DNA of 64,000 nucleotides, from IMG/VR virus record IMGVR_UViG_3300028800_002449; one strand, given 5' to 3'. Shown piece after piece: positions 10,623 to 46,759 of this stretch. The stretch's first letter is position 1. The number at the start of each line of letters is the position of its first letter. The DNA comes from a virus. The position numbers were made by a program, and so were the translations under genes. The notes below the pieces were generated by a model. It was not told where the DNA came from. It saw only the letters and a program-made list of their open reading frames with translations, and did not search any database.

Positions 10623-10627
10623 AATAG

Positions 10628-10701
10628 TACCGGCTAGGAGACTCGAACTCCTAACATGCTGGTTCTGAACCAACCGCCTCTTCCAATTGGGCTAAGCCGG
10701 C
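10628..10701 (-). tRNA. tRNA with anticodon CAG (reads CUG) but a class-I structure with a short variable loop; atypical
   Basis: Hand fold: acceptor GCCGGCT/AGCCGGT, T-arm AGGAG-TTCGAGT-CTCCT, anticodon loop TTCAGAA, 5-nt variable loop, 3-bp D-stem. Confidence 0.5.
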
Positions 10702-10706
10702 GTTTG

Positions 10707-10789
10707 TGCGAACGGGGGGACTCGAACCCCCACGGTCTTTCGACCACCAGCACCTCAAGCTGGCGCGGCTACCACTACGCCACGTTCGC
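10707..10789 (-). tRNA. tRNA-Leu(GAG), class II
   Basis: Anticodon arm CCAGC-TTGAGGT-GCTGG, long variable arm, T-arm GGGGG-TTCGAGT-CCCCC; close to E. coli tRNA-Leu. Confidence 0.75.
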
Positions 10790-10795
10790 AGAACT

Positions 10796-10942
10796 TCAAT
10801 CGATCGGATCTCCGCAGCTGCCACACCACATGTGGATGCCCTTCATCTTCGGCACCGACATCTTCCTGCAACTGGGGCAGAAGGCCTTCGCCTTCTTCGT
10901 TTCGTGCTTCAGCTTGATCGCGATCGTCTTCTTCTTCGGCAT
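10796..10942 (-). CDS. mini Zn-ribbon protein (48 aa, MPKKKTIAIKLKHETKKAKAFCPSCRK...CGSCGDPID)
   Basis: C-terminal part of track ORF 10796..11287; sits between tRNA-Leu and tRNA-Asp; CxxC...CxxC. Confidence 0.3.
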   Translation of the reverse strand: MPKKKTIAIKLKHETKKAKAFCPSCRKMSVPKMKGIHMWCGSCGDPID

Positions 10943-10959
10943 CAAGCTGAAGCTACAGC

Positions 10960-11033
10960 GGAACCAGGGGGATTTGAACCCCCGATCTCCTGCGTGACAG
11001 GCAGGCGAGAACTCCAGGCTTCTCCATGGCTCC
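10960..11033 (-). tRNA. tRNA-Asp(GTC)
   Basis: Anticodon loop CTGTCAC, anticodon stem CCTGC/GCAGG, T-arm GGGGG-TTCAAAT-CCCCC. Confidence 0.75.
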
Positions 11034-11037
11034 AAAA

Positions 11038-11586
11038 TCAGAAATGTGACCTCAAGAATCTTCTCAGATGCGTGCCCACGAGGACGGCATCTGCCTTGGG
11101 ATGAACGTCGAGGCGGCTCCTGATGTTGCTCGCCTGACAGAGCCATCCCGCGCCGTGGATCTTCCGCGCATCTTCGAAAGACTCCTTCTTCAGTCCTCCC
11201 GTCGACAAGTCGCGACTGTTCCACACTACCCTTTGACGACTCGGCATGAGGTTCATCTGTCGGAGGGAAGTCGGTTCGAGGATGCACTTCGGCATCAGCT
11301 CATAGTGTGGAACTCGTCCCACGACCAAGACGTAGTCGGCCCCGCAACCGAGAGCCGCTCGAACCTCTTCGTCGCTGTCGTGGATTCCCTTCGCGAGGAT
11401 GGGCTTGTTCGTCTGCTTCCTCGCCCTGTAGAGATGGTGGAAGGAACCACCCCACCGCGGGTCCGTATGGATCGACAGCCAGTCACCGGCTTCGCTCGCG
11501 AGGTGGAAGAGGGCTTCCCAGCTCTCCTTGCTCTCCCAGCCGAAGGGCGAGCACGTCTTCACCTCGGCGATAAGAATATGACTCAT
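11038..11586 (-). CDS. indole-3-glycerol-phosphate synthase (TrpC)-like (beta/alpha)8 barrel protein
   Basis: IAEVKTCSPFGW (the TrpC IAExK.aSPSkG motif), LSIHTDPRWGGSF, ILAKGIHDSDEEVRAALGCGADYVLVVGR; trimmed from track ORF 11038..11856, whose 5' part runs into tRNAs. Confidence 0.55.
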   Translation of the reverse strand: MSHILIAEVKTCSPFGWESKESWEALFHLASEAGDWLSIHTDPRWGGSFHHLYRARKQTNKPILAKGIHDSDEEVRAALGCGADYVLVVGRVPHYELMPKCILEPTSLRQMNLMPSRQRVVWNSRDLSTGGLKKESFEDARKIHGAGWLCQASNIRSRLDVHPKADAVLVGTHLRRFLRSHF

Positions 11587-11590
11587 CTCG

Positions 11591-11663
11591 TACGCACGGA
11601 GGGACTCGAACCCTCGATGTCCCGGATGTGAGCCGGGTGCCTTAGCCGCTAGACGACGTGCGC
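11591..11663 (-). tRNA. tRNA-Val(CAC)
   Basis: Anticodon arm CCCGG-CTCACAT-CCGGG; T-arm GAGGG-TTCGAGT-CCCTC. Confidence 0.7.
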
Positions 11664-11675
11664 ATAACAGTTTCG

Positions 11676-11747
11676 TGCGAGCGGCAGGGATCGAACCTGC
11701 GACCCCTTCGATGTCACCGAAGTGCTCTTCCGCTGAGCTACGCTCGC
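11676..11747 (-). tRNA. tRNA-Val(GAC)
   Basis: Anticodon arm CTTCG-GTGACAT-CGAAG; T-arm GCAGG-TTCGATC-CCTGC. Confidence 0.7.
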
Positions 11748-11795
11748 AATATCTGACCTCGACATCATAGTGGATGACGTCGTAATCACGAAGCT

Positions 11796-11871
11796 TGGTC
11801 AGACCGGCGGGACTCGAACCCGCGACCTCATCTTCCCCAAAGATGCGCGCTACCAACTGCGCTACGGCCTG
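11796..11871 (-). tRNA. tRNA-Pro(GGG), genomically encoded CCA
   Basis: Anticodon arm CATCT-TTGGGGA-AGATG; 3' end CGGTCTG-A-CCA. Confidence 0.75.
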
Positions 11872-11873
11872 AG

Positions 11874-11949
11874 TGGTACCAGCGGCGGGACTCGAACCCG
11901 CTACCTCACCGTTATGAGCGGTGCGCTCTTCCAGTTGAGCTACGCTGGC
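11874..11949 (-). tRNA. tRNA-Met (or Ile2) (CAT), encoded CCA
   Basis: Anticodon arm CACCG-CTCATAA-CGGTG; 3' end CGCTGGT-A-CCA. Confidence 0.7.
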
Positions 11950-11952
11950 GTG

Positions 11953-12210
11953 CTACTTCATCGCGAGGAGCATCTTGTAGGCCATCGCCATAGGCGCGCC
12001 GATCTTGCCTGTGTTTTCCAGGCGACCGATCAGAGCTTCAACGGCTTTCCAGGCCTCCGTCTCTGCCCCGTACTGCCTCGCTATTTCAATCATCGTCCTG
12101 ACCTCGTTGTTGTTCACGGTCACGAAGACCGACTTCGTCACCGTCACCTTCTCCTCCAAGATCTTAACCTTCTCGTCGAAGTAGATGTGCTGCCTGTCAG
12201 GGTGTCCCAT
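11953..12210 (-). CDS. small hypothetical protein (85 aa) inside the tRNA array
   Basis: ORF track; fits exactly between two tRNA genes. Confidence 0.4.
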   Translation of the reverse strand: MGHPDRQHIYFDEKVKILEEKVTVTKSVFVTVNNNEVRTMIEIARQYGAETEAWKAVEALIGRLENTGKIGAPMAMAYKMLLAMK

Positions 12211-12261
12211 TGAAGTTGCGTATCTTAGCCAAGATGACGTTCGACCGTCAAAGAGATGCTG

Positions 12262-12336
12262 TGCCCGCGGAGGGACTCGAACCCCCGACCTTTTCGTTCG
12301 TAGCGAAACGCTCTATCCAAGCTGAGCTACGCGGGC
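12262..12336 (-). tRNA. tRNA-Arg(ACG)
   Basis: Anticodon arm TTTCG-CTACGAA-CGAAA; T-arm GGGGG-TTCGAGT-CCCTC. Confidence 0.75.
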
Positions 12337-12342
12337 ATGAAA

Positions 12343-12378
12343 AACTTGACACTATTTTGTATTTTGCTTAAGATACTC
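12343..12378 (+). promoter_or_regulatory. sigma70-like promoter: -35 TTGACA, 17-nt spacer, -10 TAAGAT; carries the conserved TATTTTGTATTTTGCTTAAGATA element
   Basis: Read directly at 12343-12372; a GGAGA Shine-Dalgarno-like sequence follows, then ATG at 12405. Confidence 0.6.
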
Positions 12379-12404
12379 CTAGAACCCACCGAGGAGACAA
12401 CCAC

Positions 12405-12731
12405 ATGAAGCGCATCGTCAGGATCTGCATCGGAGTCGCCATCGCGCTGTTCGGCAGCGCCCTCGCCTCAGGAGCCATCAAAGCTGGTCCCGGCCTCATG
12501 CTCGGAGGCGTCATCTTCGGGGCCGGCTTCGGGGCCGTCGGAGCGCTCGCCTACCTCGGCGGCCGGCAGGACTACGCCGGCCGCATCGGCACCGTCTTCA
12601 TCCTCTTCGTCGGAGGCATCGCCGTCTTCACCCAGAGACAGACGGCTCTCGCCCTCGTCCCCTCCGCGACGGCAGGCCTTCTGGTAGGATTCGCGGTCTG
12701 CCTCACCTTCTTGAACATCTCGGAAGGATGA
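12405..12731 (+). CDS. small Gly/Ala-rich integral membrane protein (108 aa)
   Basis: Four hydrophobic G/A-rich segments; promoter and ribosome-binding site upstream. Confidence 0.6.
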   Translation: MKRIVRICIGVAIALFGSALASGAIKAGPGLMLGGVIFGAGFGAVGALAYLGGRQDYAGRIGTVFILFVGGIAVFTQRQTALALVPSATAGLLVGFAVCLTFLNISEG

Positions 12732-13267
12732 CCATGTTGACGCTCGTCCTCACGCCCCGCCTTCAGTTGTCGTTGTCCTGCAAGATCTGCCGGCAGAACC
12801 GCAACGAAGAGAAGGCTCGGCAAGCGACGATGGACGTCACCCTCTACGGACAAGAGCCGTTCGCCACTTGTCCCTGCTGCCATCAGAAGGTTGAAAGTTT
12901 CACAGATCCTCGGTACCAAGAGAGAGCACGCACCTACTTCGAAAAAGGAGAGACTCAGATGACCATCGCTTCCGCAGCCCCCATCGTGATGAAGGACGAC
13001 GTTTGGATGGACCTCGACCCGCGTGCCAAGGGACGCGAGATCCGCGTCCTCTCGGTCGACGACGACTTCGCTCGATGCAAGCGCGTCTCCGGCACTGGGC
13101 CCGTCACCAAGATCCGCCTCGATCGCTTCAAGCCGAGCCGCGGCGGCGACGGCAAGAAGGGCTTCAAGTTCGTGTCGCGCCCTCCGATCCAGCCCATCAT
13201 CCAGCCGGGCTCGTCCGTCGCGCAGATGCAAAGCATCCACGGTCCTCACGACCTTCAGGCTGACTGA
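12728..13267 (+). CDS. hypothetical protein with N-terminal Cys cluster (179 aa)
   Basis: ATGA overlap with the upstream gene; CKIC...CPCC motif. Confidence 0.5.
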   Translation: MTMLTLVLTPRLQLSLSCKICRQNRNEEKARQATMDVTLYGQEPFATCPCCHQKVESFTDPRYQERARTYFEKGETQMTIASAAPIVMKDDVWMDLDPRAKGREIRVLSVDDDFARCKRVSGTGPVTKIRLDRFKPSRGGDGKKGFKFVSRPPIQPIIQPGSSVAQMQSIHGPHDLQAD

Positions 13268-13276
13268 TCCTATCTG

Positions 13277-13349
13277 TGCGCTCGGAGGGACTCGAACCCC
13301 CGACCCTCGGCTTCGGAGGCCGACGCTCTATCCGCTGAGCTACGAGCGC
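13277..13349 (-). tRNA. tRNA-Arg(CCG)
   Basis: Anticodon arm TCGGC-CTCCGAA-GCCGA. Confidence 0.7.
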
Positions 13350-13355
13350 ATCTCG

Positions 13356-13428
13356 TGCGTCTGGAGGGACTCGAACCCCCGACCCTCAGTTTAGAAAACC
13401 GTCGCTCTATCCACTGAGCTACAGACGC
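13356..13428 (-). tRNA. tRNA-Arg(TCT)
   Basis: Anticodon loop TTTCTAA with a 4-bp stem; an alternative register would give CTA. Confidence 0.6.
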
Positions 13429-13443
13429 AGTACGATCTTCTGC

Positions 13444-14079
13444 ATGAAAAATCTCGCGTTCCCGATCATCGCCGTCGGATGCCTGCTCACAGCCGGCATC
13501 CTCACTCGATGTCCGGCGCCCGTCCCAGCCGTGCAACATCAGCTGACCTTCGCGAACGAGACGTCGTCACCCGCGACAGTCTACGTAGCCTTCGGCTCGA
13601 ACTCAGTCGTCCTGCCTACCAACTGGTCATCCTTCTGCACCGGCAGCGGCCTCAACTGCACCTTCCCGATCGCCGCCAACTCCACGCAGGTGGCACCACT
13701 TGGGGGTCAGTACCTGAACGCCACCATAGCCTTCAACGCGCCCGTGAACTGCGGCTCGACGAAGGCCGAGATGAACATCAACACGTCGAACAACACCGAC
13801 AACTACGACGTCAGCCTCGTCGACGGCTACAGCAACAACGTTAAGATCAACGTCGGCGGGACCATCCTTGGACCACCGAACGACAAGGGCGACAACCAGA
13901 AGGTCTTCGGCCTGTTCCCCTTCGGCTGCGACATCTGCGTCGCTCGCCAGAACCCTCAGTGCGGCATCCCTCGTGGGACTGGCGGCTGCAAGGGCGGAAC
14001 CCAGTACAAGCCGGACGTCCTGTGCCAGTACCAATCGCCCACGCAGGCCGTCCCCGTGAAGATCTCCCTCGTCCCGTAA
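13444..14079 (+). CDS. secreted Asn/Ser/Thr-rich protein with thaumatin-like similarity
   Basis: N-terminal signal peptide (MKNLAFPIIAVGCLLTAGIL); NYDVSLVDGYSNNVKIN resembles the thaumatin DISLVDGFN block; 16 Cys; at least 8 N-x-S/T sequons. Confidence 0.45.
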   Translation: MKNLAFPIIAVGCLLTAGILTRCPAPVPAVQHQLTFANETSSPATVYVAFGSNSVVLPTNWSSFCTGSGLNCTFPIAANSTQVAPLGGQYLNATIAFNAPVNCGSTKAEMNINTSNNTDNYDVSLVDGYSNNVKINVGGTILGPPNDKGDNQKVFGLFPFGCDICVARQNPQCGIPRGTGGCKGGTQYKPDVLCQYQSPTQAVPVKISLVP

Positions 14080-14087
14080 GCTCGAAC

Positions 14088-14120
14088 GGCGACCTCCTCC
14101 TTGGAATCGAGGAGGTCGCC
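14088..14120. terminator. bidirectional factor-independent terminator hairpin (12-bp stem GGCGACCTCCTC / GAGGAGGTCGCC) between convergent genes
   Basis: Perfect inverted repeat with a 9-nt loop between 13444..14079(+) and 14127..14579(-). Confidence 0.55.
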
Positions 14121-14126
14121 CTTCGG

Positions 14127-14579
14127 TCAGTACCGCCGCTTGTGATTGTGGTGAAGGATGCCCTCGTAGTCGACCCAGAACTTCGGGCCGCCGTCGAGGA
14201 ACCAGCCCCTCAGGTACCTCACGCTATCCGGCTTCTCGACACGGTTCACCAGGTGCTCGTAGACGATGTGTCTGCCGGGGAGGGTGTTCGTGTCGAAGCG
14301 CCTGACGATCTCAGAGACGACATCGTCCCAGTGACGGCCCGCGCGAGACGCCAGGAAGCGCTCGCAGGGTCTCGTCTTGTCGGCGTGGATGTCTTCGCGG
14401 TAGTGGGAGTACCTCTCGGGCTCCATCTCCTCGTCGAAGTCGATCGTGCCGACACGCACCGCTCGACAGTAGCGGTGATTCTTGATGCGGAACTCGCGCA
14501 GCGAGATCCTCCTGTCGTACTTGTCGTGGTTGCTCCGACCGCCCTCGATGACGGTCCGAGCCAGATTCTTGGTGGACAT
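14127..14579 (-). CDS. hypothetical protein (150 aa)
   Basis: ORF track. Confidence 0.5.
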   Translation of the reverse strand: MSTKNLARTVIEGGRSNHDKYDRRISLREFRIKNHRYCRAVRVGTIDFDEEMEPERYSHYREDIHADKTRPCERFLASRAGRHWDDVVSEIVRRFDTNTLPGRHIVYEHLVNRVEKPDSVRYLRGWFLDGGPKFWVDYEGILHHNHKRRY

Positions 14580-14638
14580 GTGAACCTCCTAATGAGCTGT
14601 TCGCATGACGCACCTCCTTTCGTGTTCGTTGTTCAGAG

Positions 14639-14713
14639 CGACCCTGGGGGGAGTTGAACCCCACATTTGCTGATTGAGAATCAGCTGTCCTAGCCAAGTT
14701 AGACGACAGGGTC
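14639..14713 (-). tRNA. tRNA-Glu(CTC)
   Basis: Anticodon arm GCTGA-TTCTCAA-TCAGC; discriminator G. Confidence 0.7.
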
Positions 14714-14719
14714 ATGTCG

Positions 14720-14792
14720 TGACGTCGACGGGAGTCGGACCCGCACATGGCAGATTGAAAATCTGCTGGCCTACCAATTAGCCTACGACGCC
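14720..14792 (-). tRNA. tRNA-Glu(TTC)
   Basis: Anticodon arm GCAGA-TTTTCAA-TCTGC; T-loop TCCGACT. Confidence 0.65.
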
Positions 14793-14803
14793 ATACTGAT
14801 TCT

Positions 14804-15250
14804 GTGGAGATGCCGGGAGTCGAACCCGGGTCCAATCAAGCTTGGGTTCAGAGCACTACGAGCGTGTTCAAGATTTCGGGGGCCAGCGTTCTCGACGGAC
14901 GCCGCTGCGGGTTTTCAGCCCACAGAGATTTCTGCCCTCCACCACTCATGATCCCGAGTTCAGTCCTTCCCACTCGGTCGGATAAAGTCCTCGGCGCAGT
15001 CGACATGAGAAAACGTTCGCGCCTCGGAACCCCATTGCTTAGCGTCAGTCCCACTAGGGGTGTGAGCTGGTACTGACGTCCTCTATGCTCTCGCGGGGAT
15101 TAGGCCGCGGCGGCGAGAGGAGCTGCGTATGCGTCGTTGAGGACGCCGTTGTCGTTCGCAGTTGTTTTTGGTCCGCTTTTTACAAGGCCTGCTGACCAAC
15201 CTTGGCTCGCGCTCTGATCTTGTTCTCGACTGTCGAAACCGTTTCATCCC
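14804..15250 (-). ncRNA. ssrA: tmRNA (ssrA), standard one-piece; predicted tag (A)ANDNGVLNDAYAAPLAAAA-stop
   Basis: 5' GGGGATGAAACGGTTTCGAC matches the tmRNA consensus GGGGcUGauUcuGGaUUCGAC. 3' tRNA-like end GGACCCGGGTTCGACTCCCGGCATCTCCA. The 5' GGGGATG pairs with the 3' CATCTCC. Resume codon GCG lies after an A-rich stretch and is followed by a 19-codon frame ending in TAA (plus 15099..15158). Confidence 0.85.
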
Positions 15251-15254
15251 CTTA

Positions 15255-15337
15255 GCTGTGAGGGTGGGACTCGAACCCACAGTTGTCTTTCGACGCGCGG
15301 TTAACAGCCGCGTGCTTTGCCATTCAGCGCACCTCAC
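15255..15337 (-). tRNA. atypical tRNA with anticodon GTT (Asn) and a long variable arm closed by a GAAA tetraloop, with a degenerate D-arm; lies 4 nt upstream of ssrA
   Basis: Acceptor TGTGAGG/CCTCACA, anticodon arm CGCGG-CTGTTAA-CCGCG, 15-nt variable arm (GTC-GAAA-GAC), T-arm GTGGG-TTCGAGT-CCCAC. Confidence 0.45.
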
Positions 15338-15347
15338 AAAAGAATCA

Positions 15348-15542
15348 TCAGAATTTCCACTTCACGTTCTCCACACACGAACAGGGTTTCACCGGAGTGC
15401 CGACTGCACCTCCGATGATGGTCTCGTCGGGCTCTCCCGTCGGCACGAGACGCATCCCCTGACACCTGCGACAGCGACCGACCCGCATCTTACGCCGCTG
15501 CGCGCCCCTCTTCTCGCCCTCTTTCGTTTTTTCTTCGCTCAC
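15348..15542 (-). CDS. small basic Cys-containing protein (64 aa)
   Basis: ORF track; sits between the tRNA-like gene and tRNA-Thr. Confidence 0.3.
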   Translation of the reverse strand: MSEEKTKEGEKRGAQRRKMRVGRCRRCQGMRLVPTGEPDETIIGGAVGTPVKPCSCVENVKWKF

Positions 15543-15579
15543 GCTTCACCCAAACCCATGTCTTGAGTCGTATACATAT

Positions 15580-15655
15580 TGGAGCCGGCGAAGAGACTCG
15601 GACTCTCAACCTGCTGATTACAAATCAGCTGCTCTACCAATTGAGCTACACCGGC
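15580..15655 (-). tRNA. tRNA-Thr(TGT), encoded CCA
   Basis: Anticodon arm GCTGA-TTTGTAA-TCAGC; T-loop TCCGAGT. Confidence 0.7.
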
Positions 15656-15808
15656 AAGACGATATCGGTCGGAGCGCCCCCTCCACCTCGGCAGCATCCT
15701 GAGCTGGGAGGCGAAAGGAAGCTGACTCATACGACGGCCTACCAGTGCCGTCGCCCCAACGGGAGGGGACGCTCACGACCTTCCTTGAAATCTAGTAAGA
15801 TTGTGGGC

Positions 15809-16528
15809 ATGGCCAAGGTCACACCCGAGCTTGCCAGCCGGATAGAGCGTCTCACCAAGAAGTACAGCGAGATGCTCTGCACCTCGTGTCCGACGCCCGA
15901 GTACCAGATCCAGGACAACATCACCTCGAACTGGCTCGGCCTCGCATCCTGGTGGATCACCAGACCGCAGCACACAGTCATCAAGTTCCAGAAGCGCATC
16001 ATCGACGATCCGACGACCTTCGAGCGCATCTCCGCTCACGAATGGATCCACCACGTCAACTACATGACGATCACGGCCAAGGACATCGCCTACCTCCGCG
16101 CCGGCCTCAAACAAGACGGCCACGGCGCCGAGTTCATGAAGTACGCGACCATCATCAACTCCCACATGGGAGCCGACTTCGTGACCCCCGTGTCCGACAA
16201 GTCCTACGTGAAGAGCGAGTCGGGGAAGACGATCAACCTCCTCATCGTGAAGGTACCAAGGAAGAACGCCCTCGCCTGGTCGTGGAACGTCAGGATGACT
16301 CCGAAGGTGAGGAACTGGATCGACAGACGGCTCGCGCTTGGAGACGCCAGGTTCTTGCAGGTCAAGGACGATCACTGGATCATCGGCGCCAAGCTCGACG
16401 GGTACGGCAAGCAGTCCATCGCGCGTGAAGGGGAGGAGACCGAAAAGCTTCTGAAGCTCTATGAGGCCGCCCCTGATCCCAAGGCCGCTGTGACACCGTT
16501 CGGTACCTTGCCGCCGGCCTCTGCCTGA
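15809..16528 (+). CDS. putative zinc metallopeptidase (HExxH), about 240 aa
   Basis: SAHEWIHH motif; ATG after a TAAGAT -10-like element; track ORF 15563..16528 trimmed to the first ATG past the tRNA. Confidence 0.5.
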   Translation: MAKVTPELASRIERLTKKYSEMLCTSCPTPEYQIQDNITSNWLGLASWWITRPQHTVIKFQKRIIDDPTTFERISAHEWIHHVNYMTITAKDIAYLRAGLKQDGHGAEFMKYATIINSHMGADFVTPVSDKSYVKSESGKTINLLIVKVPRKNALAWSWNVRMTPKVRNWIDRRLALGDARFLQVKDDHWIIGAKLDGYGKQSIAREGEETEKLLKLYEAAPDPKAAVTPFGTLPPASA

Positions 16529-16731
16529 GCCGAGGCCTCCATCGACTCCTTCGTGATCCGCTTGCAGTCGGGACACGTCGTCAGCTTCCTCGCCGGATGG
16601 ATCGAGAAGCCGTCGATCTTCCTCACCCCGCATGCGCCCAGCTCGTTCCCGAGGCTGTAGCTCCGCTTGTTGTGGGCCATCGAGGAGCGATGGACGAACC
16701 CGCCCTTGTGCTCCGTGCCGTCTCTCTTCAT
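16459..16731 (-). CDS. hypothetical small protein (antisense overlap with the upstream gene; doubtful)
   Basis: ORF track; CPDC motif; a 70-nt antisense overlap lowers confidence. Confidence 0.2.
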   Translation of the reverse strand: MKRDGTEHKGGFVHRSSMAHNKRSYSLGNELGACGVRKIDGFSIHPARKLTTCPDCKRITKESMEASAQAEAGGKVPNGVTAALGSGAAS

Positions 16732-16774
16732 CTCCGAAGTGTAGATGAATCTTAGGCAAAAGTCAAAATAGTAA

Positions 16775-16878
16775 TGGTAGCGGGGACCGGATTCGAACCG
16801 GTGAAACCGAGGTTATGAGCCTCGTGGGTTTCGAGCCTACCTTTTTAGGGGCAGACCCTCCAGACTTCCCTACCCCGC
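16775..16878 (-). tRNA. atypical CAT-anticodon tRNA-like gene with a roughly 30-nt insertion in the 5' half (pseudo-tRNA or intron-bearing), encoded CCA
   Basis: 3' half is canonical: anticodon arm CGAGG-CTCATAA-CCTCG, T-arm ACCGG-TTCGAAT-CCGGT, CCCCGCT-A-CCA. The 5' acceptor GCGGGG is separated from the anticodon arm by about 48 nt instead of 19. Confidence 0.4.
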
Positions 16879-16880
16879 AG

Positions 16881-16953
16881 AGCCCGCGAGAAGAATCGAA
16901 CTTCCTACCTACCGCTTACGAAACGGTTGCTCTTCCAAATGAGCTACGCGGGC
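16881..16953 (-). tRNA. tRNA-Thr(CGT)
   Basis: Anticodon arm ACCGT-TTCGTAA-GCGGT; T-arm GGAAG-TTCGATT-CTTCT. Confidence 0.7.
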
Positions 16954-17749
16954 TAACATGTTTACGAGACCTACATGCCTTCACCTCTAAGACGGTTTTC
17001 TTAACATGCTCTTCATGCCATAGGGGTTGAAGGTTCCTGAAGTGACAAGCTTTCAAAAGCTGAACACCATCAGAAAGATTAAACCCTGACAGCGGCTCTT
17101 TGTGATCGATTTGCCACTTACCAGGACCCCGGCCCCAGTTCTCCCAGCTCATTCCGATCTGCCATAAAGATTCAATGTACTTTCTAAGTTCGCTAGCACT
17201 GCATCCAAGATTTTTAATTGCTGAGCCGGCACGTCTCTTTCCTTGTAAGCGAACAATGTCAGCCAGTCGTGTGCGGAGCTGCCTACACATTCGATACTGC
17301 ACGTCAGAACGTGATTTATCCCTGACATAACGACTCAGTTTTTCCCTATTCAGATGAATGTATCGCTTGGAATAGCTAATGACGTGGTCGAGGTTGTTTT
17401 TCCTCCATGTCGCCATCCAAGTTTTTCTCTTCTTGCCGTTTTTAAGCCTGTAACTTCTGTCAAGCTCCTTGACATGCTCTGGATTTCTTTTCCTCCATGC
17501 CCTTACTTGTTCCCTGGATCGTTCCGGGTTTAGCCTACGGAATTTTGTACAGGCCTTTGCAGAGCACTCACGACAAGATGAATAGAGTCCGCTTGGTCTT
17601 CTACGATCGGGAGTGAACTTGGTGATGAGTCTTCGTTTCTTGCACGAAGCACATTTCTTTCTTTTAGTAGTTCGTAAGAAATTCAATGACTCAGGATTCA
17701 CCGGGGCGATCTTTCCTGCGTTCTTTGTTTTCCAGTCGCTTGGCAGCAT
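16916..17749 (-). CDS. HNH homing endonuclease
   Basis: C-terminal WQIDHKEPLS...GFNL...NLQPLWHEEH (HNH motif); the gene is markedly AT-richer than its flanks and its 3' end overlaps the 5' half of tRNA-Thr(CGT). Confidence 0.6.
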   Translation of the reverse strand: MLPSDWKTKNAGKIAPVNPESLNFLRTTKRKKCASCKKRRLITKFTPDRRRPSGLYSSCRECSAKACTKFRRLNPERSREQVRAWRKRNPEHVKELDRSYRLKNGKKRKTWMATWRKNNLDHVISYSKRYIHLNREKLSRYVRDKSRSDVQYRMCRQLRTRLADIVRLQGKRRAGSAIKNLGCSASELRKYIESLWQIGMSWENWGRGPGKWQIDHKEPLSGFNLSDGVQLLKACHFRNLQPLWHEEHVKKTVLEVKACRSRKHVSPRSSFGRATVS

Positions 17750-17750
17750 T
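16955..17750 (-). mobile_element. AT-rich HNH-endonuclease insertion within the tRNA array (freestanding homing-endonuclease-like cassette)
   Basis: Sharp GC drop relative to flanking tRNA DNA; HNH ORF; abuts tRNA genes on both sides. Confidence 0.4.
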
Positions 17751-18365
17751 GTGGGCTCTGTCGTAGCTCCACCCCTTGCGCATCAGTTCAGTTTCATGAC
17801 ATTCATGCAGCAGGACGTAGGGCCATTCGGCCTCAGGCACGTGCCAGTCGACCCACAGCTCACCCTTCGGCACGAAGCCATACCGGAACTCGTTGCCGCC
17901 CTGGATGAAAGCGCAGTCGATCGCCCGAACATGCAGGCCGTCGACCAGGTAGACCTTCAAGCCGTGCTTGCAGGTCATGTCGGCGTCCTTCTTCCAAGGC
18001 GCCTTCTTGCTCGACTTCATCCTCGCAAGACGCGCTTCTTTTTTCCGGTCCGCGTCCTCGACCTTCTTGGCCTTGTCGTAGGCGCCGACGAAGGTGCCAT
18101 TGCCCTTCCGGAGTGACTCGGCCTGTCGGCATTCGTTGTCGATCAGATGGTGGACCTCCTTCGGCAGCACCGCCCAGTCGATCCAGATCTCACCCTTCGG
18201 GATGTACGTCGCGTTCCAGCCCGAGCCCTGCACGAAGTCGCTGTCGATGTTGTTCCTCACGTAGGTCCCGTCCACGAGGTGGACCTTCAGACCATGCACG
18301 CATGACACCTGCGCGCCGCGCAGCGTCAGTGGCCGTTTCGCAAGGCCGCGCATGTGCTTGTTCAT
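17691..18365 (-). CDS. hypothetical protein built from two tandem copies of a roughly 95-aa domain
   Basis: Repeats CVHGLKVHLVDGTYVRN...PKGEIWIDW and CKHGLKVYLVDGLHVRA...PKGELWVDW; start re-called at MNKHMRG. Confidence 0.5.
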   Translation of the reverse strand: MNKHMRGLAKRPLTLRGAQVSCVHGLKVHLVDGTYVRNNIDSDFVQGSGWNATYIPKGEIWIDWAVLPKEVHHLIDNECRQAESLRKGNGTFVGAYDKAKKVEDADRKKEARLARMKSSKKAPWKKDADMTCKHGLKVYLVDGLHVRAIDCAFIQGGNEFRYGFVPKGELWVDWHVPEAEWPYVLLHECHETELMRKGWSYDRAHNAAKRLENKERRKDRPGES

Positions 18366-18384
18366 GCTTCGAGAGAATATCACT

Positions 18385-18460
18385 TGGAGCCGACGGCGTG
18401 AATCGAACACGCGACCTCTCCCTTACCAAGGGAGCACTCTTCCACCTGAGCTACGCCGGC
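18385..18460 (-). tRNA. tRNA-Thr(GGT), encoded CCA
   Basis: Anticodon arm CTCCC-TTGGTAA-GGGAG. Confidence 0.7.
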
Positions 18461-18469
18461 AAGAAATTG

Positions 18470-18540
18470 AGCACCGTGCGAGATTCGAACTCGCATCTCT
18501 GACTTGGAAGGCCAGGTCCTAACCACTCGGACAACGGTGC
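18470..18540 (-). tRNA. tRNA-Gly(TCC)
   Basis: Anticodon arm CTGGC-CTTCCAA-GTCAG; 71 nt. Confidence 0.65.
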
Positions 18541-18548
18541 AAAAACTG

Positions 18549-18622
18549 AGCGGATGACGAGACTCGAACTCGCGAACCTCCTCGATGGCAACGAGGCGCT
18601 CTACCAACTGAGCTACATCCGC
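18549..18622 (-). tRNA. tRNA-Gly(GCC)
   Basis: Anticodon arm CCTCG-TTGCCAT-CGAGG. Confidence 0.7.
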
Positions 18623-18965
18623 AAAAATAGGCGCCCAGTTTCGGAAGGGACGACCGGGCGGCGTCGCGACGAGGCCTAATCCTCGCCTTGCAGTGACTTC
18701 CTTGAGGTCGGCCGTACGAGGTTCGAAAAACCTTGTGACGCTTGGGTCCTCCAACGTGAAGTCGTCCTGGTCCTGTCAGAACGAAAGACACGTTTTCCAA
18801 GCTCGCCGTCAGGATCATGTGACGGACTGGGCCTTCCGCGGCGCCGCGTGAGCTTTCGAAGGACAGGTTCTGCTTTCCCACTCGGGGACAGCCCCGTCCA
18901 GGAAGGTAGATGACACCTTCCACCCACGCAGGATTCAAGGAGACATCACTCCTCGCCCGCAGCAT

Positions 18966-19039
18966 TGGAGACGACGGCGAGAATCGGACTCGCGATGGGG
19001 GTTTTGCAGACCCCTGCCTTGCCGCTTGGCTACGTCGTC
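18966..19039 (-). tRNA. tRNA-Cys(GCA), encoded CCA
   Basis: Anticodon arm GGGGT-CTGCAAA-ACCCC; acceptor GACGACG. Confidence 0.7.
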
Positions 19040-19048
19040 ATGAACCAG

Positions 19049-19137
19049 AGGAAGCGGAGAGAATCGAACTCTCGGAGCCCGTGAAGGCCCGTCCGGATAG
19101 CAACCGGGTGCAGCGAACCAACATCTACCTCGCTTCC
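19049..19137 (-). tRNA. tRNA-Ser(GCT), class II
   Basis: 89 nt; anticodon loop TTGCTAT; long variable arm; acceptor GGAAGCG. Confidence 0.65.
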
Positions 19138-19139
19138 AG

Positions 19140-19226
19140 AAGAGAGAGTGAGATTCGAACTCACGGACGTTTTCCAACGCCTCCAGTTTTCAAGACTGGC
19201 GCCTTAAGCCGCTCGGCCATCTCTCC
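19140..19226 (-). tRNA. tRNA-Ser(TGA), class II
   Basis: Near-identical to E. coli tRNA-Ser: GGAGAGATGGCCGAGCGG...CCAG-TCTTGAAA-ACTGG... Confidence 0.8.
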
Positions 19227-19418
19227 AAAATTAGACTCGGCCGGAGGCCCCGTCCCTCCGTGCTTCATCGGGCCGCGATCGGACGACATCACTGTTCATC
19301 TACACTGCCAGCTGGCCGAGAAGCAGAAATAACTCTCGGCCTGCGGATCCTCCCCTACTCCCCAGCGTATCGATGAGAGCGACACGCCACCATTCCGCAG
19401 GCCGAGAAAACAGACGAG

Positions 19419-19491
19419 TGGAGCTGACCGGACTCGAACCGGCCACCTCTCCCTTGCGAAGGGAGCGCTCTTCCAGATGAGCTACAGCCCC
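19419..19491 (-). tRNA. tRNA-Ala(CGC) with the G3:U70 identity pair
   Basis: Acceptor GGGGCTG/CAGCTCC (G3-U70); anticodon arm CTCCC-TTCGCAA-GGGAG. Confidence 0.75.
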
Positions 19492-19706
19492 GAGAGCTTG
19501 ACGAACGAATGGTGCCGGAGCGCCCTCACGAGCGTCGAGTTCATCGACTTCGTCTTCTTCGTGTGAGGAGGGAGCTTCAACGGCATCACGTCTTCGAAGA
19601 GCGCCGCGCAGTAGATGCATCGCTTGACCCCTGGCTCCCAGGGATCGTCATCGAACGCGTGAACGCATGGTGCGAACAGGACGCCTTTTCTCATCATGTT
19701 TGGCAT
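19482..19706 (-). CDS. small Cys-containing protein (74 aa) driven by the conserved promoter element
   Basis: ORF track; upstream (reverse complement of 19742-19775) lies CTATCTTGTATTTTG...AAGAT, close to the 12343 promoter. Confidence 0.4.
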   Translation of the reverse strand: MPNMMRKGVLFAPCVHAFDDDPWEPGVKRCIYCAALFEDVMPLKLPPHTKKTKSMNSTLVRALRHHSFVKLSGL

Positions 19707-19741
19707 TGGGTAGCCTGAACTTAAAGTCGATCTCTCTTATG

Positions 19742-19775
19742 GCAAGTAAGATAATTTGGATCTTTTTCAAAATAC
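19742..19775 (-). promoter_or_regulatory. conserved promoter-like element (reverse complement reads TATCTTGTATTTTGAAAAAGATC)
   Basis: Shares the TATyTTGTATTTTG block with the 12343 promoter. Confidence 0.35.
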
Positions 19776-19828
19776 AAGATAGCCACGATCCCTACAGGTA
19801 ACACGGGAAAAACCCCCTGTTTTTAGTG

Positions 19829-19902
19829 TGGCGGGCACCCCAGGATTCGAACCCGGTCGGGCGGATTTGGAATCCACCTGGTCGCCGATGACGCTGGTGC
19901 CC
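19829..19902 (-). tRNA. tRNA-Trp(CCA), compact (71 nt), encoded CCA
   Basis: Anticodon arm GTGGA-TTCCAAA-TCCGC; short D-arm. Confidence 0.6.
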
Positions 19903-19929
19903 TCGTATCGAGTAAGCCGAAACACCTCG

Positions 19930-20002
19930 TGGAGTCGACCGGACTCGAACCGGCCACCTTCCGCATGCCATGCGGACGCTCTTCCAGATGAGCTACGACC
20001 CC
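19930..20002 (-). tRNA. tRNA-Ala(GGC) with G3:U70
   Basis: Acceptor GGGGTCG/CGACTCC; anticodon arm TCCGC-ATGGCAT-GCGGA. Confidence 0.7.
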
Positions 20003-20060
20003 GTCCTGCTGAAACACCTTCTCAGGTCGAGAGGGTTTTCCCTCACGCTGAAAAACCCGG

Positions 20061-20133
20061 TCGGGGCGAGAGGGATCGAACCTCCTGCCTCATGCTCCCA
20101 AAGCACGCGCTCTACCAAATGAGCTACGCCCCG
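20061..20133 (-). tRNA. tRNA-Pro(TGG)
   Basis: Anticodon arm CGTGC-TTTGGGA-GCATG. Confidence 0.7.
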
Positions 20134-20140
20134 AAGAAAT

Positions 20141-20218
20141 TGGGGTGGACGACGAGACTTGAACTCGCTTGACACTGGTTCACAGCCAGTGGGCTCGACC
20201 GCTTCGCCCTCGTCCACC
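20141..20218 (-). tRNA. tRNA-His(GTG) with an encoded G-1 and CCA
   Basis: Anticodon arm ACTGG-CTGTGAA-CCAGT; extra 5' G opposite discriminator C73. Confidence 0.75.
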
Positions 20219-20233
20219 AGAAGATTCATAAGC

Positions 20234-20282
20234 CCCTTCGGCCTTCAGCGCACCTCGTGGGGGAGCTTCAGGCCGAAGAGGT
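20234..20282. repeat. 8-bp-stem hairpin CTTCGGCC...GGCCGAAG in a tRNA spacer
   Basis: Inverted repeat read directly; no U-tract follows. Confidence 0.3.
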
Positions 20283-20283
20283 T

Positions 20284-20356
20284 AGTAGGACCGGGCAGAT
20301 TCGAACTGCCGACCTTTCGCTTATCAAGCGAACGCTCTGCCAACTGAGCTACGGTC
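20284..20356 (-). tRNA. tRNA-Ile(GAT)
   Basis: Anticodon arm TTCGC-TTGATAA-GCGAA. Confidence 0.75.
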
Positions 20357-20364
20357 CCGTGCTG

Positions 20365-20514
20365 CTACTTCAAGCTGATGAGGAAAGCGGCCAAGCCGGC
20401 TATGAAAGCCCCCTTGCCGAGTTCAGCCAGCTTCCCGCTGCTGACGCCATAAACGACCGCGCCGACGACGGCCACAATTCCTGATATTCCGAGTGTGATG
20501 TGCATGAAGTCCAT
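20365..20514 (-). CDS. 49-aa single-pass membrane peptide (MDFMHITLGISGIVAVVGAVV...)
   Basis: C-terminal segment of track ORF 20365..20757, which upstream runs through tRNA genes. Confidence 0.3.
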   Translation of the reverse strand: MDFMHITLGISGIVAVVGAVVYGVSSGKLAELGKGAFIAGLAAFLISLK

Positions 20515-20531
20515 CCTATCATCTCGTGGAA

Positions 20532-20604
20532 TAGAGGGAGTGGGACACGATCCCACGACGTGCCGCTTATAAAGTGGCTGCTCTTCCGGCTGAGCTATCC
20601 CTCC
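20532..20604 (-). tRNA. tRNA-Ile-like with anticodon TAT and a non-canonical T-loop (ATCGTGT)
   Basis: Anticodon loop TTTATAA, A:C mismatch in the anticodon stem, T-loop lacks A58. Confidence 0.45.
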
Positions 20605-20609
20605 ACTTG

Positions 20610-20681
20610 TCGGGGTGAGAGGAATCGAACCTCCGACCTTCTGTTCCCGAAACAGACGCGCTACCCCTGCGCTACACCCCG
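20610..20681 (-). tRNA. tRNA-Pro(CGG)
   Basis: Anticodon arm TCTGT-TTCGGGA-ACAGA. Confidence 0.7.
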
Positions 20682-20767
20682 TTGGTCGGAGAGCTGATTG
20701 GTTTATTCTCCAGCGCCGTAGTTTTCCGTCTACGGACTTATGACTCAGAAGAGCCACTATTCTCCGA

Positions 20768-20844
20768 TGGTGCCCGGGGAGGGAATCGAACCCTCTACCT
20801 TTCCCTCTTCAGGGGAACGCTCTACCAAGTGAGCTACACCGGGC
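20768..20844 (-). tRNA. tRNA-Phe(GAA), encoded CCA
   Basis: Anticodon arm TTCCC-CTGAAGA-GGGAA; T-arm GAGGG-TTCGATT-CCCTC. Confidence 0.7.
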
Positions 20845-20849
20845 GTAAT

Positions 20850-20895
20850 CGCGGTGGTGGCTTCCACCGCGCCCATGATTTTCTATTTGATTTTC
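20850..20895 (+). terminator. GC hairpin (CGCGGTGG...CCACCGCG) followed by a T-rich tract; putative terminator
   Basis: 8-bp GC stem followed by CCCATGATTTTCTATTTGATTTT. Confidence 0.3.
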
Positions 20896-20924
20896 ACAGA
20901 ACCAGCCACCTGCCGATGGCGGAG

Positions 20925-20997
20925 TACCGAGGGAAGGGCTCGAACCTTCAATCTGCTGGGCCAGAACCAGCCGTCCTGCCAATTAGACCACCTCGGT
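20925..20997 (-). tRNA. tRNA-Gln(CTG)
   Basis: Anticodon arm GCTGG-TTCTGGC-CCAGC. Confidence 0.7.
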
Positions 20998-21006
20998 ATG
21001 TACTGT

Positions 21007-21077
21007 CCTCAGGGAACGATTCGAACGTTCATAGGCGGGTCCAAAGTCCGCCGTCCTGCCGTTAGACGACCTGAGGA
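21007..21077 (-). tRNA. tRNA-Gln(TTG)
   Basis: Anticodon loop CTTTGGA; paralog of the adjacent Gln(CTG). Confidence 0.6.
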
Positions 21078-21148
21078 TGTCGATGTGGATGCATCGACCC
21101 TCGTTGTCGCTCACGTCGCATGTTGATCTCCTCGTTCATTTTCATCCG

Positions 21149-21223
21149 TGGGCTGAGAGGGACTCGAACCCTCGACCGTTCGCTTAAGAGGCGACTGCTC
21201 TAATCCAACTGAGCTACCAGCCC
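21149..21223 (-). tRNA. tRNA-Lys(CTT)
   Basis: Anticodon loop CTCTTAA; T-arm GAGGG-TTCGAGT-CCCTC. Confidence 0.65.
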
Positions 21224-21365
21224 GTTCCGCTGCTTCCTCTGCTTCCTCGCGTCGATACTCCTCCGTGTACTCGTCGTAGATCTTCCTGTTGCTCGGGTCA
21301 GCCAAGAACTCTTCGATGTAGCTCGTCGCTCGGGATTTCCTCAGCTTCGTCAGCTCATCCATATC

Positions 21366-21479
21366 TCAATGCTTCTTGTCGCAGTCCTTGTCGTCGCTCG
21401 TCCACGTGCATGTCGCCGTCGTGCAGATCCTGCGCACGTAGACGACGATCGTTTCTCCATTGCAGCAGGGACATTTCAT
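21366..21479 (-). CDS. 37-aa Zn-ribbon mini-protein (MKCPCCNGETIVVYVRRICTTATC...)
   Basis: Hand-called ORF between tRNA-Lys genes; CPCC...C..C. Confidence 0.25.
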   Translation of the reverse strand: MKCPCCNGETIVVYVRRICTTATCTWTSDDKDCDKKH

Positions 21480-21484
21480 CTCGG

Positions 21485-21557
21485 TGCCCTCGGTCGGATT
21501 CGAACCGACGATTCAGCGCTTAAAAGGCGCGGGTGATGGCCGCTTCACTACGAGGGC
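21485..21557 (-). tRNA. tRNA-Lys(TTT)
   Basis: Anticodon loop CTTTTAA; D-stem GTGA/TCAC. Confidence 0.65.
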
Positions 21558-21629
21558 GAACGGATTCGCTCGCCCTGCGTTTGCTTTCTGCCAACCTCTG
21601 CTTCGTCATACTCATGTCGTTTCTTTTCG

Positions 21630-21714
21630 TGGGAGCTGAAGGACTCGAACCTTCGAAGGTCGCGATGACCGCCTGGTTTACAGCCAAGTTCTTTTGCCGC
21701 TTAGAAAAGCTCCC
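21630..21714 (-). tRNA. tRNA-Tyr(GTA), class II
   Basis: 85 nt; anticodon arm CTTGG-CTGTAAA-CCAGG; long variable arm. Confidence 0.7.
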
Positions 21715-22214: not shown

Positions 22215-22643
22215 ATGGTCACTTCGACAAAAATGGTGGACAAGAACGGCGTCGTCAAGCGCTGGTCCTACAAGCAGCTCAACGGCACCAGCCTTCAGCC
22301 GTTCCTCGCTGGCGGCTTCGCCCGACACGTCCACGTCCTCCTGTTTCGTGGAGACATGAAGGAGGTCGCCAGGCTCACCTCCGACATGACCCCGCTCGAT
22401 AGAACAGCGGTCAAAGTGGCGATCCAAGAAGATTACGCCCTCTACGAGTTCTATACGGTCTCCTTCGCTCCGGGACGAGAATTCGTCACTCTGGAAGACT
22501 GTGCAACAGCATGGGAAGCAGCCGGTGCGCCCGGCGACGTGGTCGTCATGAAAAACGTCTATGACCACAAGGAGAACGAGTACCGAGGTGTCGACTCCCT
22601 CAACCTCGACGGCTCCGTCTATGGCGTTGTCCCTACCCTCTGA
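22215..22643 (+). CDS. hypothetical protein (142 aa)
   Basis: ORF track; first gene after the promoter. Confidence 0.5.
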   Translation: MVTSTKMVDKNGVVKRWSYKQLNGTSLQPFLAGGFARHVHVLLFRGDMKEVARLTSDMTPLDRTAVKVAIQEDYALYEFYTVSFAPGREFVTLEDCATAWEAAGAPGDVVVMKNVYDHKENEYRGVDSLNLDGSVYGVVPTL

Positions 22644-46757: not shown

Positions 46758-46759
46758 CC

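Follow-up and report, generated by a model that had tools for sequence, protein, structure and literature searches.

Does a phage that brings a tRNA for every amino acid also bring its own ribosome-rescue RNA, and is the gene for that RNA in working order? The question is raised by a 64,000-nt stretch of the IMG/VR virus record IMGVR_UViG_3300028800_002449, referred to here as the window, which corresponds to positions 187243–251242 of a 260,244-bp ENA metagenome contig. A preliminary description, made from the letters alone, had placed there a complete, one-piece, phage-encoded gene for transfer-messenger RNA (tmRNA; gene ssrA) with a long tag and an abutting, odd tRNA. Judged against established tmRNA biology, it is highly probable that this is a functional, phage-encoded, one-piece tmRNA gene. 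Because the tag frames stay open in relatives and the stems of pseudoknots 3 and 4 carry compensatory changes, the pattern of substitutions indicates a gene maintained by selection, not a relic and not the ssrA of a host.

A complete tmRNA gene

The Rfam tmRNA model RF00023 matched the minus strand at 15251..14802 with 125.9 bits (E 8.6e-49), covering model positions 1–374 of 374 and scoring above the gathering threshold of 47 bits. The end-to-end alignment and the structure counts below agree with the complete one-piece ssrA that had been proposed; the covariance model, whose failure to fold the pseudoknots had been named as the outcome that would count against it, aligned along the full length of the RNA. 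The gene itself was correctly recognized, with coordinates (14804..15250) that are shifted by one from its actual position at 14805..15251 on the minus strand.

The tRNA-like domain is complete, with a 7-bp acceptor stem, the G3·U70 pair, discriminator A73 and a T-arm with a UUCGA-type loop. Its ends pair as predicted, GGGGAUG with CAUCUCC, including G3·U70, and the sequence box that had been pointed out, GGUUUCGAC, lies at tmRNA positions 12–20. Read 5′ to 3′, the RNA opens with GGGGAUGAAACGGUUUCGAC and closes with GGACCCGGGUUCGACUCCCGGCAUCUCCA. The gene lacks a 3′ CCA; the genomic letters after the discriminator are ACAG. A comparison of the whole window with Rfam gave no family beyond tmRNA and tRNAs. 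The elements of the gene, with pseudoknots abbreviated PK and their stems S1 and S2, are as follows.

14805..15251, minus strand: tmRNA (ssrA), 447 nt, from G1 at 15251 to the A73-equivalent discriminator at 14805; from RF00023 and the structure counts
15245..15251, minus strand: 5′ strand of the acceptor stem, GGGGAUG, pairing with 14806–14812; holds G3 of the G3·U70 alanine identity pair
15170..15204, minus strand: PK1; S1 CAAGG/CCUUG (tmRNA positions 48–52/65–69), S2 GGUC/GACC (55–58/79–82)
15100..15159, minus strand: tag frame; resume codon GCG at 15159–15157, 19 codons, stop codon UAA at 15102–15100, A at −4
15092..15109, minus strand: helix 5 hairpin CGCGG-CCUAAUCC-CCGCG, its loop holding the stop codon; fully paired in the close set described below and structure-compatible
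15029..15078, minus strand: PK2; S1 CGUCAG/CUGACG (tmRNA positions 174–179/204–209), S2 ACCCC/GGGGU (191–195/219–223); all paired, none varying
14945..15023, minus strand: PK3; S1 GGCGCG/UGCGCC (tmRNA positions 229–234/254–259), S2 CUCAUG/CAUGAG (243–248/302–307)
14954..14977, minus strand: extra hairpin CCGAGU/ACUCGG in the 3′ loop of PK3 (tmRNA positions 275–298)
14905..14925, minus strand: PK4 stem-1 hairpin CUGUGGG-CUGAAAA-CCCGCAG (tmRNA positions 327–347); a second PK4 stem could not be placed
14806..14829, minus strand: T-arm CCGGG-UUCGACU-CCCGG (14813–14829) and 3′ strand of the acceptor stem, CAUCUCC (14806–14812)

The extra length of the RNA comes from nine more tag codons, the added PK3 hairpin and a longer PK3–PK4 region (81 nt as against 38 in the model). 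Endonuclease coding sequences (CDSs) adjoining the match in Myxococcus phage Mx1 had prompted the idea of a group I intron or homing-endonuclease insertion. This candidate was rejected: the Mx1 tmRNA is contiguous, and the window has no such Rfam match.

Pairing and covariation in related tmRNAs

The canonical tmRNA elements were placed by hand as a pseudoknotted structure and their pairs counted, with sliding of the 3′ partners as the control. A nested-only consensus from RNAalifold had contained implausible long-range pairs, for example between a PK1 strand and the PK4 region, and was replaced by this structure. Counts were made in a close set of three sequences and in a wider set of nine tmRNAs. 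The close set comprises the window and two contigs from other samples, L021 and L023, whose VWA-domain proteins are 95% and 73% identical to that of the window and whose tmRNAs, at 94% and 82% identity, score 126 and 114.8 bits with RF00023.

In the close set, 95.6% of 249 cells are paired, compared with 28–41% in the slid controls, and eight pairs have changed on both sides, compared with 0–1. All eight lie in PK3-S1, where four of the six pairs show both-side change (in L021 or L023), and in stem 1 of PK4, where four of seven do and 100% of cells are paired. PK3-S2 is fully paired in this set, its pairs being invariant or changed one-sidedly.

Across the nine tmRNAs, the acceptor stem H1, H2c, PK1 and the T-arm are paired in 96.7% of cells and contain 10 double-change pairs, compared with 0–4 in the slid controls. 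G3·U70 is invariant in all nine, and the acceptor stem covaries at pairs 4–6. The T-arm/acceptor region is paired in 100% of cells, with both-side changes at three T-stem pairs. S1 of PK1 switches in a compensatory manner between CAAGG/CCUUG, CGAGG/CCUCG (Mx1 and others) and CCCGG/CCGGG (L009, a large-phage contig).

A long tag that ends in four alanines

In tmRNA numbering, the conserved A is position 89, the resume codon GCG occupies 93–95 and UAA occupies 150–152, inside the loop of the CGCGG/CCGCG hairpin. As had been read from the letters, GCG opens 19 sense codons, which encode ANDNGVLNDAYAAPLAAAA and end at UAA; ARAGORN gives the same tag when its settings are relaxed or the RNA is shortened. 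The tag starts with AND-, as in E. coli, and its length is indeed about twice the usual, the most frequent tag length being 10 amino acids (aa) in a tmRNA database of 97,179 sequences (PMC11915505). An A at −4 from the resume codon is present in all nine related tmRNAs; its E. coli equivalent, A86, sets the reading frame (PMC2481249). The tags of the close set compare as follows.

Window: ANDNGVLNDAYAAPLAAAA, 19 aa; reference
L021: ANDNGVLSDAYAAPLAAAA, 19 aa; a single AAC to AGC change (Asn to Ser, N8S)
L023: ANDNGVSAAPLAAAA, 15 aa; an exact 12-nt (4-codon) in-frame indel

Both relatives keep the AAPLAAAA end, the open frame and the UAA stop, so that the interrupted frame which the preliminary description had named as counting against a working tag is not seen in either of these independent copies. 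Since neither the substitution nor the 12-nt in-frame indel breaks the frame, the tag behaves, to judge from its conservation, as a translated frame. The C terminus, PLAAAA, has two terminal alanines, with Leu at −5 rather than −3, and differs from the E. coli-type ALAA/LAA end. In E. coli, recognition by ClpX depends most strongly on the two terminal alanines. For a tag with an AAAA end, the degron may be specific to the lineage.

A length cutoff hides the gene from ARAGORN

ARAGORN and Infernal had been put forward as ways to confirm the gene. The RF00023 search did so; ARAGORN at default settings reports no tmRNA. In a deletion series, RNAs of 447 or 437 nt gave no call, and RNAs of 427 nt or less (at least 20 nt deleted) were called as a standard tmRNA with the same tag. 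Because the shortened RNA gives a normal call, the silence of ARAGORN is a length cutoff alone. With the -ps80 option, ARAGORN proposes a ‘permuted’ model that borrows the T-arm of the neighbouring tRNA-Asn; we rejected it, as the shortened RNA is instead called as one-piece. The tmRNAs of the closest relatives (449 nt in L021 and 437 nt in L023) are likewise missed. The 12 other tmRNAs that we collected measure 317–399 nt, and ARAGORN called nine of them. A survey of huge phages also called tmRNAs with ARAGORN (PMC7162821).

Setting within the phage genome

The tmRNA gene is embedded in a dense tRNA array, in which the following features are relevant here.

10627..21714, minus strand (all genes): array of 35 tRNA genes covering all 20 amino acids, with the tmRNA embedded
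15256..15338, minus strand: tRNA-Asn(GUU), 83 nt to G73 (15256); ARAGORN Asn(gtt), 84 nt; RF00005, 53 bits
15252..15255, minus strand: 4-nt spacer CUAA between G73 of tRNA-Asn and G1 of the tmRNA
14719..14792, minus strand: tRNA-Glu(UUC), beginning 12 nt downstream of the tmRNA
14638..14713, minus strand: tRNA-Glu(CUC), after tRNA-Glu(UUC)

Phage-type genes flank the array on both sides for tens of kilobases. They include a terminase large-subunit homologue, SNF2 and RecD-type helicases, exonuclease V, a DNA polymerase exonuclease subunit, a Dam methylase and a set of genes for nicotinamide adenine dinucleotide (NAD) salvage; no bacterial housekeeping genes were found in the window. The gene thus lies inside a phage genome and not at a junction between prophage and chromosome. 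The local order tRNA-Asn, tmRNA, tRNA-Glu(UUC), tRNA-Glu(CUC) is kept in L021 and L023. Together, the 35-tRNA array, the phage genes on both sides, the viral relatives and the synteny in two phage contigs bear out the earlier view that the tmRNA is phage-encoded.

Several other features of this region stand apart from the tmRNA. The NAD-salvage set (22215–25586 and 35–50 kb) contains NAMPT (23748–25586), a NUDIX/NrtR-like protein (22658–23386), two cytidylyltransferase-like (NMNAT-type) proteins and a nicotinamide mononucleotide transporter; we take it to resemble the phage NAD-regeneration modules that are used against NAD-depleting defences. Most tRNAs of the array lack an encoded CCA. A tRNA-Ile with anticodon UAU (20531–20605, minus strand), an uncommon bacterial way of reading AUA, stands beside tRNA-Ile(GAU). 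Both tRNA-Ser genes (GCU and UGA; 19048–19226, minus strand) have U73 and not the usual bacterial tRNA-Ser G73 (PMC7609411). A candidate tRNA-repair module was discarded: the PHROG ‘RNA ligase’ match covers only the phosphoesterase domain of a NinI-like phosphatase.

Relatives and known tmRNAs

The VWA-domain protein of the window (631 aa, 3405–5300) is conserved, with more than 1,300 homologues, many of them on contigs of 100–620 kb. The homologues include IMG/VR viral contigs and the uncultured ‘Virus Rctr197k’, which is the sole GenBank relative by this protein; no cultured phage through which a host might be assigned was matched. Among four homologue-bearing contigs at 65–67% VWA identity, L025–L028, the arrays are very dense, lying to either side of the VWA gene with 21–41 tRNA genes per 21.8 kb, and three contain small genes that match Pfam Acb5 (PF26761) within their tRNA arrays (L025 8082–8303, L026 7696–7920 and L028 8658–8933).

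Four large-phage contigs, L001, L009, L013 and L018, have tmRNAs inside tRNA arrays, as does the cultured phage Mx1. Their tags are ANDNHFVEEIRAAA in L001, ANYNGFAQAA in L009 and, in the metagenomic tmRNAs adjoining tRNA genes in L013 (1619–2015) and L018 (680–1049), the 23-aa ANDNVELPAWMISAMSGELRAAA and ANSDVELPAWMIGAVAPGLRAAA, both ending in AAA. Nucleotide searches with the locus itself found little. Against GenBank phages, megablast gave no match, that is, no near-identical DNA, and a distant blastn gave only short matches in the tRNA-like domain and PK1. Scans of IMG/VR gave 0 matches to the PK1 core, 0 to the invariant PK2 segment and, with an 18-mer of the PK3/PK4 junction, two chance matches with no tmRNA. 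In a tblastx of the array region against the relatives, the RNA genes alone matched and the small open reading frames (ORFs) of the array did not.

The Mx1 tmRNA (OR576727.2, approximately 46646–47023; L012 2996–3373) scores 117.7 bits with RF00023 and is unannotated in its GenBank record, where a 41-aa CDS labelled ‘Hef-like endonuclease’ overlaps it. It is the only GenBank-phage DNA match outside the T-arm and 3′ end (80% over the 5′ 80 nt), and it shares with the window a near-identical PK1 core with the compensatory S1 change, a location in a tRNA array and a tag that ends in AAA. It differs in its overall identity of about 57%, its length (376 nt), its 14-aa tag (VNTNVFGSQMMAAA, from ARAGORN) and its resume codon GUC; the Mx1 record was also unmatched by the two window proteins queried against GenBank phages, a 761-aa ORF and the VWA protein. 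An exact copy of the 26-nt PK1 core was found in 1 of 185,579 species genomes, in the ssrA of an Anaeromyxobacteraceae metagenome-assembled genome (MAG; DASPZP010000343.1). That gene likewise encodes an AAAA-ended tag (...ANEPMINMSAAAA, with the end ...MSAAAA), and differs in being chromosomal, among hydrolase, CMD and RibD_C genes, in its length (363 nt), in its 13-aa tag and in its approximately 58% identity to the window tmRNA. Because the PK1 core was found only in this MAG, which has an AAAA tag, and because Mx1 is the best phage match, the sequences point weakly to a Myxococcota donor or host with a lineage-specific degron, a lead and not a host assignment.

In comparison with E. coli 10Sa RNA and the bacterial RF00023 family, the window RNA has the same tRNA-like domain with G3·U70 and A73, T-arm, long helix 2, PK1 approximately 10 nt ahead of the resume codon, A at −4, AND- tag start, stop codon inside the loop of helix 5 and, farther downstream, three putative pseudoknot regions. 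It differs in being phage-encoded within a tRNA array, in its length (447 as against approximately 360 nt), in its tag of 19 rather than the modal 10 aa with an AAAA rather than LAA end, in the extra hairpin inside PK3 and in lacking an encoded CCA.

Phage tmRNAs are themselves established. Cluster C mycobacteriophages such as Bxz1 carry one, and Streptomyces phage Tomas has an annotated tmRNA with the tag DNSNVAFALAA. tmRNA and SmpB are on record in huge phages (Al-Shayeb et al. 2020, PMC7162821), and the tmRNA database includes phage entries, mycobacteriophages among them (PMC11915505). Like these, the window tmRNA is complete and sits in a large, many-tRNA phage, with a presumed role in sustaining translation during infection. 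It comes from a different, uncultured lineage, and is set apart by the length of the RNA, which places it in a class undetectable by ARAGORN, by its longer, AAAA-ended tag and by the extra PK3 hairpin.

Proposed function and its alternatives

Gene anatomy and conservation were read directly; the processing, charging, rescue, tagging and degradation steps that follow draw on established tmRNA biology. By analogy, the function is most likely ordinary trans-translation with the alanyl-tRNA synthetase (AlaRS), SmpB and EF-Tu of the host. The tmRNA would be transcribed within the minus-strand array jointly with the upstream tRNA-Asn, a co-transcription that the 4-nt spacer between the two makes plausible. 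Given the gaps of 4 nt upstream and 12 nt downstream, it would be part of a polycistronic array transcript and be freed by tRNA-processing enzymes. RNase P, for which PMC3985003 records a known role in 5′ processing of tmRNA, would cut at G1, and the 3′ end would be trimmed and, as CCA is not encoded, CCA would be added after processing. From G3·U70 and A73, charging with alanine by host AlaRS is expected.

The charged tmRNA, with SmpB and EF-Tu, would then enter ribosomes stalled on broken or stop-less mRNAs. The SmpB partner is most likely that of the host, since none is encoded in the visible 64 kb. Translation would resume at GCG, four nucleotides after the conserved A, add ANDNGVLNDAYAAPLAAAA and end at UAA, upon which the ribosome would be recycled and the tagged peptide probably passed to host ClpXP-type proteases by way of its Ala-rich C terminus. 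Degradation appears to be the least certain link of this mechanism, given that AAAA and not LAA closes the tag. For the phage, the benefit would be that ribosomes stay available during the long infection by a jumbo phage, which also supplies a complete set of tRNAs.

Several observations weigh against this account of a functional gene. PK1, PK2 and helix 5 are invariant across the three close sequences; the PK3 and PK4 covariation comes from these three, the only sequences alignable through PK2–PK4; and a second stem of PK4 is not assignable. The tag terminates in AAAA and not in the LAA that E. coli ClpX recognizes. No SmpB (PF01668) is present among the 66 ORFs of at least 90 aa within the 64-kb window, the part of the 260-kb contig that this search covered; some huge phages encode SmpB (PMC7162821). 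A scan for consensus promoters and terminators gave counts near chance, with none on the minus strand at 15655–14638, and was uninformative overall. Finally, no tmRNA was found in the 20 kb examined of each of L025–L028, and the gene is therefore not shared by the whole group.

The AAAA end bears on an alternative in which the RNA rescues ribosomes without degradation as its primary outcome, the long tag being poorly or differently recognized by host proteases or adaptors, so that ribosomes would be recycled for the phage with no added load on ClpXP, or tagged products would be redirected by it. The PLAAAA rather than ALAA terminus fits this idea, as do the AAA ends of phage-type relatives (...QMMAAA in Mx1, ...IRAAA in L001 and ...LRAAA in L013 and L018) and the 15–19-aa range of tag lengths in the clade, which suggests a loosely constrained tag middle. 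However, two terminal alanines are present, AAPLAAAA is kept across an in-frame indel, so that the C terminus seems to matter, and the bacterial Anaeromyxobacteraceae ssrA is also AAAA-ended, so that this may simply be the degron of the local host. We regard rescue without degradation as unlikely, though it is the alternative to which we give the most weight.

It is very improbable that the array passively carries a copy captured from a host that is decaying or does not function. An RNA that exceeds its relatives by 50–130 nt, has insertions in both the tag and PK3, lacks an encoded CCA and escapes ARAGORN could look like such a copy, but the missing call is the length cutoff and most tRNAs of the array likewise lack CCA. 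The tag frame, moreover, survives a substitution and a 12-nt in-frame indel, PK3 and PK4 show compensatory changes, and G3·U70, A73, the T-loop and A(−4) are all intact. We give almost no credence to a host chromosomal ssrA beside an integrated prophage, or to a chimeric assembly: integration at ssrA is common, and several IMG/VR matches to the same 5′ 20-mer (L002–L007) do look like a single bacterial ssrA with no array, but here array tRNAs adjoin the gene at distances of 4 nt and 12 nt, phage genes extend for tens of kilobases on both sides, the same local order recurs in two independently assembled contigs of other samples and the window contains no bacterial housekeeping genes. Ordinary trans-translation by a phage gene under selection is the reading that we prefer.

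A tRNA-Asn with a long variable arm

The GTT tRNA-like gene that had been noted as abutting the tmRNA is a real tRNA-Asn(GUU), at 15338..15256 rather than 15255..15337, a shift of one position. It is also odd, as described, in having a 16-nt variable arm; the eight other tRNA-Asn in the phage group have lengths of 73–76 nt. The variable region contains the hairpin GUC-GAAA-GAC (15294–15285), and the 3-bp D stem is shifted. The tRNA-Asn hallmarks U1:A72, G73 and GUU in a CUGUUAA loop are present and common to the normal Asn tRNAs of relatives (L001 and L010). The anticodon, discriminator and cloverleaf are thus of the bacterial tRNA-Asn type, and the 4–5-nt variable loop of class I is absent; the molecule has the long arm of class II (Leu/Ser/Tyr) but falls outside that definition through its GUU anticodon and G73. 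Such mismatches between class and anticodon are rare among the 342 ARAGORN tRNA calls at all loci. The homologous genes compare as follows.

Window: 83 nt to G73; arm GUC-GAAA-GAC; acceptor UGUGAGG; G73
L021: 91 nt (ARAGORN call); arm UCCC-GAAA-GGGA; acceptor ACCAGUG; G73
L023: 74 nt; normal short loop; acceptor ACCAGGG; G73

Because the L023 homologue is normal and those of the window and L021 are long-armed, the arm appears to have been gained in the common ancestor of the window/L021 lineage and kept as a GAAA-capped hairpin with an altered stem. The variable arms of tRNA-Leu(GAG) are GGUC-GAAA-GACC in the window and L021 and UCCC-GAAA-GGGA in L023, and both Asn arm sequences match them, which suggests that the arm was grafted by recombination from a tRNA-Leu(GAG)-type arm; the motifs are short. 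Nematode nev-tRNAs (PMC3333845) and allo-tRNAs (PMC5389517) also combine a long variable arm with a normally class-I anticodon. The phage tRNA differs from them in its standard 7/5 acceptor/T arrangement, its tRNA-Asn rather than Leu/Ser hallmarks and its arm stem of 3–4 bp.

On these features tRNA(GUU) is most likely a working tRNA-Asn, most likely charged by asparaginyl-tRNA synthetase. It is improbable that it is not an Asn tRNA in practice, whether charged by seryl-tRNA synthetase (SerRS) or another synthetase with AAY codons partly recoded, or acting as a non-decoding RNA such as a nuclease decoy or a processing element. SerRS reads a long variable arm and G73 and ignores the anticodon (PMC7609411), and the class-II shape and G73 of the phage tRNA fit this recognition; nematode class-II tRNAs with non-Leu/Ser anticodons are Leu-charged (PMC3333845). 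The arm has also been kept by compensatory change in the window and L021, and the same two genomes carry a class-I-shaped tRNA with the Leu anticodon CAG. Against this, the tRNA retains U1:A72, G73 and the CUGUUAA loop, all hallmarks of tRNA-Asn, and in a set of 35 tRNAs that is otherwise complete no other gene decodes Asn. Its 3-bp arm stem resembles that of the phage’s tRNA-Leu(GAG), whereas the phage tRNA-Ser have arms of 6–7 bp and U73; by analogy, Ser charging is of low probability. G73 also excludes the usual Leu or Tyr identity, which needs A73.

The tRNA with Leu anticodon CAG (window 10627–10701, minus strand; L021 5303–5377) is the reverse oddity to the long-armed tRNA-Asn and occurs in the two genomes that carry it; it measures 75 nt, has A73 and has a short variable loop of the class-I type. 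At the same place, L023 has a normal 87-nt tRNA-Leu(CAG), but the gene in the window and L021 has a different sequence and is not that tRNA with its arm removed. We consider it doubtful, and offer it as a speculation from the sequences, that selection keeps the long-arm tRNA(GUU) and the class-I-shaped tRNA(CAG) as re-shaped decoders, through escape from nucleases and defences or through non-cognate (for example, Ser) charging. If it were so, the escape would be from host nuclease or defence targeting of ordinary tRNA-Asn, and Ser charging would mean that AAY is partly recoded during infection. The tmRNA lies 4 nt downstream of tRNA(GUU), probably in one transcript with it, and its tag has three AAC codons. 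Another related phage contig, L008, has an 82-nt tRNA-Arg(CCU) with an enlarged variable region (15907–15988), again a class-I anticodon on a long tRNA.

The spacer between tRNA-Asn and the tmRNA also varies. It is approximately 34 nt in L021 (approximately 115–147) and L023 (approximately 454–487), where it forms a covarying hairpin, GAGAGC...GCUCUU versus GAGAUC...GAUCUC, that may be a processing element. This hairpin is deleted in the window, leaving 4 nt.

Implications

Although a phage tmRNA is not in itself new, the gene described here adds a well-conserved case of ribosome rescue being brought along by large phages whose tRNA sets are near-complete. The tmRNAs of its clade (437–449 nt) lie beyond the limit of ARAGORN, so that long phage tmRNAs may be under-counted; the cultured phage Mx1 likewise has an unannotated tmRNA. 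The natural series of tags, of 15, 19 and 23 aa and all ending in AAA or AAAA, could be used to learn which parts of an ssrA tag matter. The long-armed tRNA-Asn is more unusual than the tmRNA itself, and offers a rare natural experiment in tRNA class switching.

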